A stretch of 63,985 nt of DNA, the filler included, from Candidatus Limnocylindrales bacterium (GTDB lineage: Bacteria > Moduliflexota > Moduliflexia > Moduliflexales > JAUQPW01): NCBI GenBank assembly GCA_035559535.1. It is 3 parts of 3 records of this genome, joined end to end, with 100 filler letters (N's around TTAATTAATTAA, not from the genome) between each part and the next. Parts side by side here need not be neighbours in the genome. Positions count along the whole stretch, not along the records: positions 28,339 to 47,230 come from DATMBG010000049.1; 2 more parts are not named here. One strand, 5' to 3'. Shown here one piece after another: positions 28,239 through 47,330 of this stretch. How positions within the stretch are numbered: position 1 is the first letter of the stretch; the number at the start of each line of letters is the position of its first letter. The position numbers were made by a program, and so were the translations under genes. The notes below the pieces were generated by a model. That model was not told the origin of the DNA, did no database searches, and saw only the letters and a list, made by a program, of their open reading frames with translations.

Positions 28239-28338
28239 NNNNNNNNNNNNNNNNNNNNNNNNNNNNNNNNNNNNNNNNNNNNTTAATTAATTAANNNNNN
28301 NNNNNNNNNNNNNNNNNNNNNNNNNNNNNNNNNNNNNN
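28239..28338. other. Artificial contig-join spacer
   Basis: N44-TTAATTAATTAA-N44 with stops in all frames. Confidence 0.97.
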
Positions 28339-32582: not shown

Positions 32583-33071
32583 ATTAACCTCCTAAAAAAG
32601 TTGTTTATCTCATTGGTCAAAGTTCTAAGCTATCCAGATGGGTACTAAGGTGGTGTTGGTATCATATCTCACCCCCCTTCCTCCGAGCATGAACCTAACG
32701 GCGTGATAATTATCTGGAGTGCGAACTGTATTACTTTATTTGGGCAACAACTGGCCTATGCTTTGTTAGTCTAGTTCGGAGTACTTTAAGTTTCTGAAGC
32801 CAGATTGGCTACGAATGGTTCGAGTATTTTGTGGGTCCCGCCTCATGCTGACTAATCCAAAGACTTTGTCCTTAGACGGCATTTAGCTGGCTAATTTTTT
32901 TAGTTTACCCTATACCTCTTTCCAGGGGGAATAAAGCAAAAATAAGTCCTACCCCTAATCTTATCACTGGATAAGGCTATCTAGAAATATTGGGGGCTGA
33001 TTCTACTTAAGGGAAGGCTACTTGTCAAGTAAAAATTGCGAGATCAGCTAAGATCCCTGGGATCAAACCCT

Positions 33072-33788
33072 TCAACCGATCAGGGATAGCCAGGGCTGCC
33101 AACCGCTACACCAACTCACAGCACCGATCAATGCCGCACGATCCTCCATTGTGTCGGTACTCCGGCATTCCCAATGGAATGAGCGGGTATACTGACCTAT
33201 GTGTTCGGTGATGTATTGAACGAGCGTCGGGTGCTCCCTAAGCTTTGCCGTACCGAGGATGAGCTCCTCGTGCAGATGGACTCGACAGCGTGGACGTGTT
33301 TCATCTTGGGCGCAACGTCCACAAACACTCTTACGCCAATAGAAACTTGTCGTTTCAGCGAAAGCTCGTATCTCGGTAAGGTCTCTGCCTTGCTCGAACA
33401 TTTCGCGGGAGGCCATACCACGAGAAGTTGAGCTATAACCTAACTCACACATAAGGCACGGTCCGGTATTCCGGAGGCGGTAGACAACCCGAATTTCTTG
33501 CAGCGGTCCATGGAGGTTGAAGGCAGCAAGCGCACGCTCCGTCAAATCCTCATAGAGAAGAGTAGGCCCTTGCAGGTAACCGTGGCGAAACGCCGCATCT
33601 ACCGACAGGAAGGTAAAGATGTGCCGCTGGCACATCCCCCAGGCTCGACACAACCGCGCCCGCGTATCGGGGACCATGATACTCCCCTGTATAAAGAACC
33701 AGAGGAAGTGAACCTCCCCAGGGGAGGGTCGTAGATCCTCCAGCCGAGACGGCGAACTACCTAAAATGGCACGCGGAGAGATGTCCAT
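33072..33788 (-). CDS. Cys/His-rich hypothetical protein (DUF6062-like)
   Basis: R..L..AWGMC.RH, LY, CLMC, CGRC, C..H pattern suggests metal binding. Confidence 0.6.
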   Translation of the reverse strand: MDISPRAILGSSPSRLEDLRPSPGEVHFLWFFIQGSIMVPDTRARLCRAWGMCQRHIFTFLSVDAAFRHGYLQGPTLLYEDLTERALAAFNLHGPLQEIRVVYRLRNTGPCLMCELGYSSTSRGMASREMFEQGRDLTEIRAFAETTSFYWRKSVCGRCAQDETRPRCRVHLHEELILGTAKLREHPTLVQYITEHIGQYTRSFHWECRSTDTMEDRAALIGAVSWCSGWQPWLSLIG

Positions 33789-33819
33789 TTTTATTTTCCA
33801 GCTTGGGCTCGATTTCTAT

Positions 33820-34080
33820 ACATTTGCGTTCGGAACTGAAGGGAATTTCTTCCAGCCGCGGATACCTGAGTTCTAAATCGGCTAAGGTCCATTCCCCCTT
33901 TTCAGCAGCCACGACTAGGGCTCCTTCTGTGGGATCTCCTTCAATGTCCCAACCCTCTTCTCACTGGACCAGATGGGCGTTATTACAAAGCCCGGCAATG
34001 AGTAGGAGCCGTTTAAGATGGGGATCCGGAGGGGAAAAACTCTTTTGATTCCACCGGAATTCCCCTTGAGGCTCTTACCC
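33820..34080 (-). pseudogene. Fragment of a cation-transporting P-type ATPase (N domain)
   Basis: G*EPQGEF...LCNNAHL.Q*EEGWDIEGDPTEGALVVAAEKG...YPRLEEIPFSSERK with two in-frame stops; not in the ORF track. Confidence 0.8.
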
Positions 34081-34193
34081 CTTTACACGTTCTTAAGTTA
34101 ACCATCTTACTCCTAACCCTCCCTCGTCTTACAAGGAACTTTGACTGCAACGTTCCTTCCCCTGCCGGGGCGAGGGAGGATCAGACTTTCTGT

Positions 34194-34463
34194 TTATTCG
34201 CCTCCCCGCTGGGTAAAGTTTTTTACGAACTCCTCTGCATTTTGCTCCAAAACCTCATCGATTTGATCCATGAGATCTTCCAGATTTTTCTTGATTTCCT
34301 TTCCCTTTTCCGATACGTTTCCACCGGATCTTTCTTCCTTTTCCTTTTGGGGTTCTGTGGGCCTGACAACCCTTTTCTGCTGGTCCACGGTGGCATAGGA
34401 AATTCCCAAAAGTAAATGGGCCTCGGTTTGAAGGGAATCGTGAAATAAATGTTTGAATATCAT
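34194..34463 (-). CDS. pup: Prokaryotic ubiquitin-like protein Pup with a 25-aa N-terminal extension
   Basis: C-terminal DLMDQIDEVLEQNAEEFVKNFTQRGGE is the Pup signature; SD AAAGGAGGT 8 nt before the ATG. Confidence 0.9.
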   Translation of the reverse strand: MIFKHLFHDSLQTEAHLLLGISYATVDQQKRVVRPTEPQKEKEERSGGNVSEKGKEIKKNLEDLMDQIDEVLEQNAEEFVKNFTQRGGE

Positions 34464-34500
34464 CTTAACTTACCTCCTTTCGCCCTTTGAGCCATCTTTG

Positions 34501-34528
34501 GCAGGGGCACGTTGCCACGTGCCCTTAC
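34501..34528. repeat. REP-like palindrome
   Basis: GCAGGGGCACGT-TGCC-ACGTGCCCTTAC, resembling GTAG-type REP hairpins. Confidence 0.5.
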
Positions 34529-34608
34529 TATTTTCTCGCTTTCCTTACGGCTAAAAGGGTCTTGTAAAGCCGGATAAATCCTGCTCTGATTCCAGGTTGT
34601 ACAAGACA

Positions 34609-35778
34609 TCAAATTTTATAAATAACCAGAGCTCCCAGGATACTTAACACCGCCGTATATCCAAAACCTATTGCCGGAGAGACTGTGCTCCATAAAAATC
34701 CTACCACCAGGCTTGAAACAAAGTCCCCAATCCCATTGACAGTAGCTAACATGCCATATCCGGTTCCCCGCACCTCTTCGGGGAGAAGCTCAGCGGCTGT
34801 AGATCCTTCCAGGGCATCTTCCACGGCAATGTAAATCCCTCCTAAAACAAAAAGGATCAGCAAATAGCCGAAGCCCGGCGGAGCCAGGATAAACCCGATA
34901 CCCATAACCCCGGAAAGGAGGTATCCCAAAGCCAGGAGCTCTCGTCGACCCAGTTTATCGCTGAGGGCTCCCACGGGATAGGCCGATAGGGCATAAAGAA
35001 TATTATGGATCACATAAAGGGAAATGGCCAGACTTTCGGCTTTAGCCATTCCATAAATCGGGGTTAGAACCTGGGTGGCCCGTAGGATCAATAAGGTATG
35101 GGCGAAATCTCCCATCCCGAAGATGAAAACGCCTGCTAAAAACAGCTTAAAGCTTCGGGGCGTATCCGTTATGTTCTTGAAAAATTTCATGGCGTGGTTA
35201 GGAGCCCGGGATCTATCCTTGACTAAAAAAGCAATGGCGGCTGCAGAAAGCAGTCCGGGGACCAGGGTTATCACAAAAATAGTCCTTAAACTCAAGTATT
35301 TAATAAAAATAAACGCCAGAAACGGGCCCAACACCGCACCGGCAGTATCCATAGCCCGATGAAATCCAAAGGCGCGGCCATAAGCTTCCGGGGGTACAGA
35401 ATCGGCCAGCATGGCGTCCCGGACCGGTCCTCGCAGCCCTCGACCCATCCAGCCAACTACCCGTCCAATGAGGACGTGCTGCCATAGGGTCGCCAGGGCA
35501 AAGGTTGCTTTAGATACTCCGGTGATTACATACCCGGCCACGGCCAAAGCCTTCCGTTTTCCGATCCGATCGCTGTACCACCCCGACCAGAGCTTGACAA
35601 AGCTCGAGGCTGCGTCGGCTACCCCCTCAATGATACCCAGGGCAGCAGCCGAAGCCCCAATGGTTGCTAGGAACATGGGTAAAATGGCCGTGGCCATTTC
35701 ATGACCGGCATCGCTGAGGAAACTCGCCAACCCCATCCCTAACACATTTCTATTGAACCAGTTCTTCTTCTCTGTCAT
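34609..35778 (-). CDS. MFS transporter
   Basis: About 12 TM helices, G..SDR.GKR motif A, GRAFG.HRAMD, G.LSD..GRR. Confidence 0.9.
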   Translation of the reverse strand: MTEKKNWFNRNVLGMGLASFLSDAGHEMATAILPMFLATIGASAAALGIIEGVADAASSFVKLWSGWYSDRIGKRKALAVAGYVITGVSKATFALATLWQHVLIGRVVGWMGRGLRGPVRDAMLADSVPPEAYGRAFGFHRAMDTAGAVLGPFLAFIFIKYLSLRTIFVITLVPGLLSAAAIAFLVKDRSRAPNHAMKFFKNITDTPRSFKLFLAGVFIFGMGDFAHTLLILRATQVLTPIYGMAKAESLAISLYVIHNILYALSAYPVGALSDKLGRRELLALGYLLSGVMGIGFILAPPGFGYLLILFVLGGIYIAVEDALEGSTAAELLPEEVRGTGYGMLATVNGIGDFVSSLVVGFLWSTVSPAIGFGYTAVLSILGALVIYKI

Positions 35779-38052: not shown

Positions 38053-38163
38053 CGAAGTTGAAACATCGCCCTGTTCTGAAATAGACCCGGACAGTCTTTT
38101 TCTTGAAAGGAATCGTAAGCCAGCCCAGGGAACCGTTTTCCCTGTTCCGGTTATTTACCCTGC

Positions 38164-38199
38164 AAAAAAAAACCCTACCTGGGGTTTTTCCAGGTAGGG
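38164..38199 (-). terminator. Intrinsic terminator T2 in the riboswitch leader
   Basis: CCCTACCTGG-loop-CCAGGTAGGG (10 bp) followed by T9 on the minus strand. Confidence 0.85.
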
Positions 38200-38203
38200 G
38201 ATT

Positions 38204-38281
38204 AAAAAATATAACTCCTACCTTCAACCCGGTAAACTTTGAATACAAAAGAAACTTTCTCGGATCGAATGTAGGAGTTAT
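38204..38281 (-). terminator. Riboswitch expression-platform hairpin T1 overlapping the aptamer 3' end
   Basis: ATAACTCCTAC (38281-38271) pairs with GTAGGAGTTAT (38221-38211), followed by ATTTTTT. Confidence 0.7.
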
Positions 38282-38327
38282 CAGCCGTTTTAATCTCCAA
38301 CGGCGGTTCTGGTGAACTCCATCACCT
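38271..38327 (-). ncRNA. Fluoride riboswitch (crcB motif)
   Basis: GGTGATGGAGTTCACC-AGAACCGCCGTT...AACGGCTGATAACTCCTAC matches the GGnGAUGGnGUUCnCC..AACCGC..GCUGAUrACUCCUAC consensus. Confidence 0.92.
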
Positions 38328-38334
38328 AAAAATT

Positions 38335-38363
38335 AAAATAGTATGCAGCCTCCCAAATGTCAA
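38335..38363 (-). promoter_or_regulatory. Sigma70-type promoter driving the fluoride riboswitch leader
   Basis: TTGACA-17 nt-TATTTT, placing +1 at about 38328, the aptamer 5' end. Confidence 0.8.
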
Positions 38364-47230: not shown

Positions 47231-47330
47231 NNNNNNNNNNNNNNNNNNNNNNNNNNNNNNNNNNNNNNNNNNNNTTAATTAATTAANNNNNNNNNNNNNN
47301 NNNNNNNNNNNNNNNNNNNNNNNNNNNNNN
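47231..47330. other. Artificial contig-join spacer
   Basis: N44-TTAATTAATTAA-N44. Confidence 0.97.

Follow-up and report, generated by a model that had tools for sequence, protein, structure and literature searches.

A second pup gene downstream of a fluoride riboswitch in a Candidatus Limnocylindrales bacterium

The window analysed here, a stretch of 63,985 nucleotides (nt) from a genome deposited as Candidatus Limnocylindrales bacterium, carries a gene for the protein tag Pup that stands away from any proteasome or Pup ligase gene and is called here the orphan pup (Table 1). Comparison with the rest of the genome identified it as a real second paralogue of pup, an old duplicate, and placed it as the fourth gene of a same-strand cluster that is headed by a fluoride riboswitch and continues with genes for a dynamin-like GTPase, a HEAT-repeat protein with a zinc ribbon and an MFS transporter. 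A fluoride riboswitch and an extra pup were also found together, in a different arrangement, in Rokubacteria. The reading that we narrowly favour is that the orphan provides a fluoride-inducible extra supply of Pup for a single PafA/Dop/Mpa system. The role of Pup outside Actinobacteria is largely unknown, and pup is mostly regarded as a one-copy gene coupled to its ligase; another pup attached to a ligand-specific RNA sensor would name a concrete condition for tagging, fluoride, that is testable with a simple inducer.

Two pup genes in one genome

A preliminary description of the window had pointed to a Pup C-terminus ending in GGE, to a strong Shine-Dalgarno (SD) site at an upstream ATG, and to an internal GTG without a good SD that would give a protein of 64 amino acids (aa). 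All of these features were confirmed: the ATG of the open reading frame (ORF) is preceded at 9 nt by AGGAGG, and the in-frame GTG, which has no SD, is codon 26. The search with Pup profile models that the same description had proposed gave matches to PF05639 (Pfam; E 1.7e-15; 58.1 bits, cut-off 27; model positions 11-69 covered by residues 33-89) and to TIGR03687 (pupylate_cterm; 48.9 bits, cut-off 41.45). At 89 aa, or 64 aa if read from the GTG, the protein is within the range of 50-90 residues given for Pup in a passage of Iyer et al. (2008; PMC2588565), in which pup is also said to be 'invariably' adjacent to the PafA gene. The orphan is not adjacent to dop, pafA or proteasome genes, which is a feature of its context and not of the protein.

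That the window holds no proteasome or ligase genes had also been remarked on. This was correct, as tblastn gave no match to mpa, dop, prcB, prcA or pafA in the window, contig C49 included, but it carries little weight, because the window consists of three separate contigs of one metagenome-assembled genome (MAG), C47 (1-28238), C49 (28339-47230) and C54 (47331-63985), joined by spacers of N (28239-28338 and 47231-47330). The spacers likewise make any argument from neighbourhood across 28.3 kb or 47.3 kb void. The orphan lies 5.9 kb into C49, which is 18.9 kb long.

Outside the window, the source genome (G000; 5.6 Mb in 58 contigs, 95.8% complete, 4.07% estimated contamination) has on contig C36 a complete canonical locus, mpa-dop-pup-prcB-prcA-pafA, the products of which are an AAA ATPase with proteasomal OB domains (609 aa), Dop (506 aa), PrcB (263 aa), PrcA (229 aa) and PafA (463 aa). 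Profile matches in the genome number two for Pup and two for the Pup ligase family, and tblastn found no second copy of mpa, dop, prcB, prcA or pafA elsewhere in the assembly. The earlier proposal of a second Pup was thus borne out, by one full proteasome locus with its pup on C36 and by the presence of both pups in G001, the only other genome of the genus; the scenario in which the orphan would simply be the genome's only pup, relocated, is excluded by the canonical copy. Seven genomes of the sister family have one pup each.

The orphan and the canonical Pup of the genus share a motif, DQQK...P..PQ.EK, that the other pups in the comparison set lack. Over the core, 42 of 64 residues are identical between the two (counted on the alignment), with Y-to-F and V-to-T changes near the C-terminus, and synonymous sites are saturated (proportion of synonymous differences, pS, 0.94), a sign of an old duplication. 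For the orphan core, the comparison of G000 with G001 gave a pS of 0.158 and a proportion of non-synonymous differences (pN) of 0.032, both from small counts (six synonymous and five non-synonymous differences); as far as such values go, they indicate that the core is under purifying selection.

The fluoride riboswitch and its recurrence beside pup

The aptamer at the head of the cluster is the sole match to the fluoride riboswitch model RF01734 in the source genome, and it is kept in G001 at 57.7 bits. Directly upstream is a sigma-70-like promoter match; matches of this kind, made to the consensus only, number four in the region where 5.1 would be expected. Downstream follows an expression platform with two terminators. 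The 5' arm of the first is the aptamer's own 3' ACUCCUAC segment, and the RNA from 38160 to 38345 (minus strand) folds with a minimum free energy of -65.5 kcal/mol (z -6.2). As read from the sequence and the fold, terminator 2 has in its 5' arm a CCUACC complementary to the GGUAGG in the 3' arm of terminator 1, so that a fluoride-bound aptamer could relieve both terminators in relay.

A promoter, an aptamer and a terminator competing for the aptamer's 3' strand are the usual anatomy of fluoride riboswitch regulons, which this cluster shares together with the control of a transporter. It differs from them in the set of genes controlled, here the dynamin-like GTPase, the HEAT protein, the MFS transporter and pup, and in the exporters that accompany it: CrcB was not found in the 95.8%-complete genome, which appears to be without this usual exporter, and the two CLC homologues present are both long forms (616 and 684 aa). 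The MFS transporter, standing behind the single fluoride riboswitch of the genome, may be a fluoride-related exporter of the organism.

The order of the cluster is conserved in the lineage. G001 is about 90% identical in nt over the stretch from the riboswitch to pup inclusive, and an intact gene for a SERCA-type ATPase follows. The metagenome contig L098, which starts inside the dynamin gene, continues with the HEAT and MFS genes and a pup encoding 86 aa (68% identical to the orphan), and then, 45 nt later, with the ATPase gene. The dynamin-like GTPase is 92% identical in G001 and 81% identical in L098, and the HEAT protein is conserved in both; a relative of the orphan Pup, P0002, has 89 aa and is 87% identical to it. 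The stretch was also recovered from other data. When the probable source run was assembled independently, 32800-35200 came out with zero differences; the pup region is matched at 99% or more by small contigs of a second study, and a third study yielded a 32-kb contig with the G001-like version; contigs of both these studies span the junction between the MFS gene and pup.

Within the cluster the start of the HEAT gene overlaps the stop of the dynamin gene by 4 nt and the MFS gene in turn overlaps the HEAT gene, whereas the MFS gene and pup are separated by 145 nt in G000 and by 240 nt in L098. A sequence scan of the 145-nt spacer found neither a minus-strand terminator nor a sigma-70 match, and no Rfam element was found in it at the gathering threshold. 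When the spacers of G000, G001 and L098 were aligned, conservation was evident only around the SD. The spacer of G000 contains, at 34503-34526, a 24-nt palindrome with a perfect stem that resembles a repetitive extragenic palindromic element; three copies occur in the genome (on C6, C37 and C49, at up to 3 mismatches), G001 is without it, and in L098 a different inverted repeat is inserted in the spacer. The common strand, the overlaps of the first three genes and the lack of an intervening minus-strand terminator are consistent with pup being on the riboswitch transcript.

Further fluoride riboswitches were seen in related genomes. G001 has a second one, on C78, before a gene that by eye resembles a Na/H exchanger, and the small ORF that follows this gene presumably resembles DUF190. 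In the sister family, G008 has five within 11 kb (C12:159588-170173) and a sixth, sub-threshold, on C18, and G006 has two overlapping aptamers in tandem (C3:629861-629977), at a distance of about 10 kb from the canonical pup of that genome; an MFS homologue carrying an in-frame TGA is 5 kb from the aptamers.

The pairing of a fluoride riboswitch with an unlinked pup recurs outside this lineage. A survey of 158 pup loci from two collections gave 27 without a proteasome or ligase gene by tblastn, and 24 of these were scanned with Rfam (L120, L149 and L152, of 1-1.4 kb each, were left out). Three carry a fluoride riboswitch: that of G001, the Rokubacterial locus L089, and L176, a metagenome contig high in guanine plus cytosine (GC) in which the aptamer stands about 220 nt before a 64-aa pup, followed by genes for a metallophosphoesterase and a Na/H exchanger. 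The comparison was then made over 81 Rokubacterial genomes, from the order to which the genome of L089 belongs, with nine genomes representing the bacterium's own order. Pup was matched in 78 of the 81 (94 matches), 14 genomes having two or three copies and 64 having one, and 30 of the 81 have between them 40 fluoride riboswitches. Eight of these riboswitches are followed shortly by a pup that shares their contig and strand, and all eight fall within the 14 multi-pup genomes, with none in the 64 single-pup genomes. Seven of the eight pairs have 48-112 nt between the aptamer and the start codon of pup. The remaining pair, that of L089, has a DUF6062 gene in between, and the pup, a 20-codon C-terminal remnant, is 1 kb behind the riboswitch.

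Two observations from this sample may be added. The 20-codon ORF of L089 (10001-10060, plus strand) lies between two DUF6062 genes and consists of the C-terminal helix and GGE with its own ATG behind a GGAGGAGGGG site, so that it could be either a remnant or a mini-Pup. In the single-pup Rokubacterial genome G073, which is unpublished, the riboswitch is on another contig; nothing concluded here relies on that genome.

The partner families are similar in the two phyla. When searched with the window proteins (tblastn), six of the eight Rokubacterial riboswitch-pup loci had DUF6062, five MFS and six USP, and in five of seven the DUF6062 gene followed pup within about 60 nt. Dynamin-like GTPases, 26-37% identical to that of the window, are present in four of the eight, and in L219 and L225 a second, convergent riboswitch drives the dynamin-like gene. 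The loci differ in length (6-19 kb), and a family not seen in one of them is therefore not thereby absent. The window's MFS protein is 39% identical to the riboswitch-side MFS protein of L089, compared with 29-36% for those of its own order (sister family), and a Cys/His-rich protein of 238 aa encoded beyond pup is 47% identical (E 4e-48) to an ORF product of the same Rokubacterial locus. The closeness of these two proteins suggests that parts of the island moved between phyla.

In the sampled Rokubacteria an unlinked pup is the rule, since none of 29 pup loci without a riboswitch (L187-L218 among them) has a proteasome or ligase gene within 1.5 kb on either side; in three of the genomes (G060:C206, G045:C10 and G041:C258) dop and pafA stand about 1.8 kb apart on contigs with no pup match. 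A maximum-likelihood tree was built from 50 Pup cores (63 columns, from the last 62 residues of each ORF, with L195, which belongs to an unpublished genome, left out), and many of its forks are unresolved. This lineage's three orphans constitute a clade at 100/99, placed weakly with the pups of their own order. Of the seven Rokubacterial riboswitch-linked pups, six constitute another clade at 90/95 and are separate from the Rokubacterial pups without a riboswitch (98/96). Four changes along the tree are required to account for the label 'riboswitch-linked', and the labelled pups form one group in zero bootstrap trees. Independent recruitment in two phyla is the simpler reading, and a single origin would be compatible with the well-supported branches taken alone.

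The two kinds of riboswitch-linked pup are thus alike in being extra copies under RF01734 with genes for DUF6062-type zinc-motif, dynamin-like, MFS and USP proteins nearby. They differ in that the Rokubacterial pup is the first cistron, directly behind the aptamer and without an N-terminal extension, whereas in this genome it stands fourth among the cistrons, 3.8 kb downstream, and is extended; nor do the two groups join on the tree, which has 63 columns only. The earlier suggestion that the orphan might be fluoride-induced is supported by architecture and recurrence, that is, by an RF01734 aptamer with its terminator at the head of a same-strand cluster and by the Rokubacterial pairs.

A proposed role for the extra Pup and its alternatives

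A fluoride-inducible supply of Pup would work as follows. Without fluoride, transcription from the promoter at about 38363 would halt at the terminator overlapping the riboswitch. With fluoride bound, the aptamer would retain its 3' strand and terminator 1 could not form; the freed 3' arm of terminator 1 may then pair with the 5' arm of terminator 2, relieving it as well. RNA polymerase would read through the genes for the dynamin-like GTPase, the HEAT/zinc-ribbon protein and the MFS transporter into pup, and the ancestral transcript would also have reached the genes for the Ca-ATPase and the Cys-rich protein. The extra Pup, which already ends in Glu, would need no deamidation. The single PafA would ligate it, the single Dop, Mpa and 20S proteasome would handle the tagged products, and tagging capacity would rise during fluoride stress. 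As to purpose, more Pup might be needed because Mg-fluoride species trap it at active sites of the Dop type, or else the extra supply might serve the clearance of fluoride-poisoned proteins. According to a passage in PMC8599861, Mg-fluoride species bind between ADP and the residue at Pup's C-terminus in crystal structures of Dop.

The source genome's PafA and the orphan Pup were modelled as a complex from alignments of 34 and 12 rows, respectively, with a score of 0.74 compared with 0.00 for the best control; the mark used is reached by 116 of 157 solved complexes and by 2 of 215 mismatched pairs. The runs shared at least 50% of their contacts, and the partner had a predicted local distance difference test (pLDDT) value of 49-51. 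The predicted interface consists of Pup residues 57-89 only, the N-terminal extension taking no part. The structure of a PafA-Pup complex has been solved, and this pass therefore shows likeness rather than binding.

Several points weigh against the proposed supply. A strong second terminator stands behind the riboswitch-controlled one and might block read-through. Co-transcription over 3.8 kb and the 145-nt spacer, like the use of the orphan by PafA and its physiological purpose, is a step that we infer, and a promoter in the spacer could escape a sigma-70 scan. The pup gene is the fourth cistron in this lineage and the first in Rokubacteria. The orphan is also evolving faster than the canonical Pup, with five core amino-acid changes against one between G000 and G001. 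Furthermore, the genes that follow pup are decaying, and reciprocally so: G000 has a remnant of the ATPase gene and an intact gene for the Cys-rich protein, and G001 has an intact ATPase gene and only the two ends of the Cys-rich gene, so that selection on the distal part of the cluster may be weak. The rationale of fluoride trapping is drawn from an in-vitro crystallisation result and the purposes suggested are speculative; finally, the genome is a MAG with an estimated contamination of 4%.

A broader idea, which we put forward tentatively and with more doubt than belief, is that pupylation is an arm of the bacterial fluoride stress response that was recruited at least twice, in this lineage and in Rokubacteria. 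The riboswitch would in that case induce a dedicated Pup paralogue along with a dynamin-like GTPase, an MFS transporter and zinc proteins of the DUF6062 type, and the extra Pup would replace Pup locked by Mg-fluoride onto Dop or PafA, or would mark poisoned enzymes for degradation by the proteasome. The conserved, cross-phylum fluoride island, with its dynamin-like GTPase, MFS, DUF6062-type and 238-aa Cys/His-rich proteins, is made up of members without an assigned role in fluoride tolerance.

The orphan might instead be a fluoride-blind dosage duplicate that happens to lie behind a fluoride operon and has its own promoter in the spacer. We consider this unlikely, if with some arguments in its favour: the gap before pup stands out against the overlapping genes upstream, and the spacer, into which mobile palindromes have moved, shows little conservation in L098. 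However, the gene order is constant in three genomes of the lineage, the spacer has neither a coding-strand terminator nor a sigma-70 match, and a direct and independent coupling of a riboswitch to pup, with partners from the same families, exists in Rokubacteria and L176, which makes a chance neighbourhood unlikely.

It is somewhat less probable again that the orphan is a specialised Pup, which tags or binds its membrane-associated neighbours (the dynamin-like GTPase, the MFS transporter, the P-type ATPase and the Cys-rich or DUF6062 proteins) or acts as a decoy for Mpa or Dop, and is not used for bulk degradation. The divergence of its core from that of the canonical Pup would fit this, as would the tight co-location with the same families in two phyla, including the DUF6062 gene close behind pup in five of seven Rokubacterial loci, and the modification of membrane proteins by Pup in some non-actinobacterial lineages has been proposed in a passage of Iyer et al. 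(PMC2588565). Nevertheless, the PafA-binding helices of the orphan are conserved and are predicted to dock as usual. The Cys-rich family, moreover, is widespread and includes proteins of Anaerolineae and Desulfomonile, which are not known to carry Pup.

The preliminary description saw the mark of a specialised Pup in the N-terminal leader, the 25-codon extension, which could alter localisation, processing or engagement of the ATPase. The extension is probably translated, as judged by comparison of related genes. The frame is open and the ATG and SD are kept in G000, G001 and L098, with an in-frame indel of 9 nt in G001; four of four orphan orthologues carry the extension, with a GIS[YR]AT motif just before the core; and between G000 and G001 it gave a pN of 0.083 and a pS of 0.267 (four differences of each kind). 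The internal GTG is disfavoured as the true start, as it lacks an SD and, in L098, the corresponding position is without a start codon. The extension is also hydrophobic and aromatic in character, with a mean Kyte-Doolittle hydropathy of +0.42 against -1.46 for the core and with F, Y, W or H at 6 of its 25 positions.

Such an extension is not peculiar to the orphan, however. The canonical pup of the same genome is an 89-aa ORF as well, with an ATG behind AAGGAG and an unrelated extension of 25 aa, and all 12 pup ORFs read (11 from the bacterium's own order and one from an outside genome, G014) can be read in frame from an upstream ATG, with a length of 84-97 aa, this ATG being preceded in 11 of the 12 by a GGAG/GAGG-type site (by eye). 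Within one genus the extensions have a QH.WHS motif in common. Extended homologues in similar contexts, which it had been proposed to look for, were not found among the Rokubacterial riboswitch-linked pups, which are 66-68 aa long and have no extension. The extension is thus a trait of the lineage and not the mark of an orphan, the published range of Pup lengths already accommodates it, and the leader as the basis of a special function is very improbable. A start codon close to the usual place is retained in many pups of the order, so that dual initiation giving a long and a short isoform would be possible. Mpa threads the N-terminus of Pup, and an SD-driven extension on every Pup read in the order bears on how Mpa engages that N-terminus.

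Lastly, an artefact, in which the second pup came from a foreign organism binned into the MAG or from misassembly, is scarcely credible and was rejected: a MAG with the estimated contamination given above, 58 contigs and a short C49 might allow it, but G001, an independent MAG of the same genus, has both loci, the DQQK...P..PQ.EK motif is common only to the orphan and the canonical Pup of the genus, the GC content of C49 (45.8%) is that of the genome (45.7%), and the independent assembly is identical over the stretch, which, or a relative of which, is carried by contigs of two other studies.

Set beside canonical Pup, as represented by PF05639 and TIGR03687 and by the locus of Actinobacteria and Nitrospirota, the orphan has the same model matches, the GGE end, the predicted PafA-docking helices and a full enzyme set in its genome; it differs in being a second copy away from the proteasome genes, in a membrane-stress cluster headed by a riboswitch, and in its 25-aa extension. 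A Pup-like tag outside Actinobacteria, UBact, was reportedly described by Lehmann et al. in 2017 in Gram-negative phyla and is said to have longer conserved N-terminal parts. In Haloferax the paralogous tags SAMP1, SAMP2 and SAMP3 share one activating enzyme and possibly differ in their conditions of use, which offers an analogy only, their fold and chemistry being unrelated to Pup. A full-text search, with subscription journals outside its scope, found no paper in which 'fluoride riboswitch' occurs alongside 'pupylation', 'ubiquitin-like' or 'dynamin'. For fluoride together with pupylation, the topics among the matches listed, as they appear from parts of these papers, were inhibitors, proximity labelling or crystallography, and for Pup paralogues there was nothing relevant among the matches listed.

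Neighbouring genes and minor features

Table 1. Features of the riboswitch-headed cluster, in their order along the minus strand (positions in the window)
Feature	Position	Strand	Remarks
Sigma-70-like promoter match	38335-38363	minus	TTGACA, 17 nt spacer, TATTTT; directly upstream of riboswitch
Fluoride riboswitch aptamer (crcB motif, RF01734)	38265-38335	minus	55.5 bits, gathering score 34; full model 1-64
Terminator 1 (expression platform)	38211-38281	minus	Long hairpin, then U-run; coordinates from dot-bracket string
Terminator 2	38173-38199	minus	10-bp GC-rich hairpin, then U9; conserved in G001
Dynamin-like GTPase, 597 aa	36259-38052	minus	First gene behind riboswitch; Pfam Dynamin_N 1.7e-28
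HEAT-repeat protein with N-terminal zinc ribbon, 170 aa	35750-36262	minus	HEAT_2 2.2e-19, DZR 0.0036
MFS transporter, 389 aa	34609-35778	minus	MFS_1 4.9e-41; 29-nt overlap with HEAT gene
MFS-pup spacer, 145 nt	34464-34608	minus	Between MFS gene and pup
Orphan pup ORF, 89 aa	34194-34463	minus	ATG start; C-terminus ...QRGGE directly 5' of stop codon
N-terminal extension of orphan Pup, 25 codons	34389-34463	minus	From SD-preceded ATG
Pup core, 64 aa	34194-34388	minus	Ends GGE
Remnant of SERCA-type Ca2+ P-type ATPase gene, 258 bp	33825-34082	minus	blastn 93% to G001 gene
Cys/His-rich protein, 238 aa	33072-33788	minus	No Pfam assignment; distantly related to DUF6062

Just 3' of the pup stop codon, at 34090-34190 (minus strand), is an inverted repeat, CCTCCCTCG ... 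CGAGGGAGG, that by eye is conserved in G001. A smaller hairpin, AAGGAAC ... GTTCCTT, sits inside it, and could be a terminator, a processing site or a repeat element. The ATPase gene that survives here as a remnant is intact directly after pup in G001 and L098, and the G001 protein matches TIGR01116 at 3.3e-236.

The 238-aa protein encoded beyond this remnant belongs to a widespread Cys/His-rich family, for which 209 homologues were found, typically of 230-260 aa and with an N-terminal part resembling DUF6062. Eight residues, C53, H56, C111, C114, C156, C159, C168 and H171, are invariant in the family, a pattern which suggests two metal sites. Its AF2 model is all-alpha with a pLDDT of 92, and no fold relative of solved structure was found for it, the best match by Foldseek against the PDB having an E of 0.54 and the best by VIA-align a Z of 4.4 (root-mean-square deviation 4.2 over 98 residues).

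The first 4.7 kb of C49 (28339-33000) are sparsely coding, with ORFs of 183, 124 and 111 aa that have no Pfam match, and are similar to G001 in patches only. The contig breaks off 107 nt into a 16S rRNA gene.

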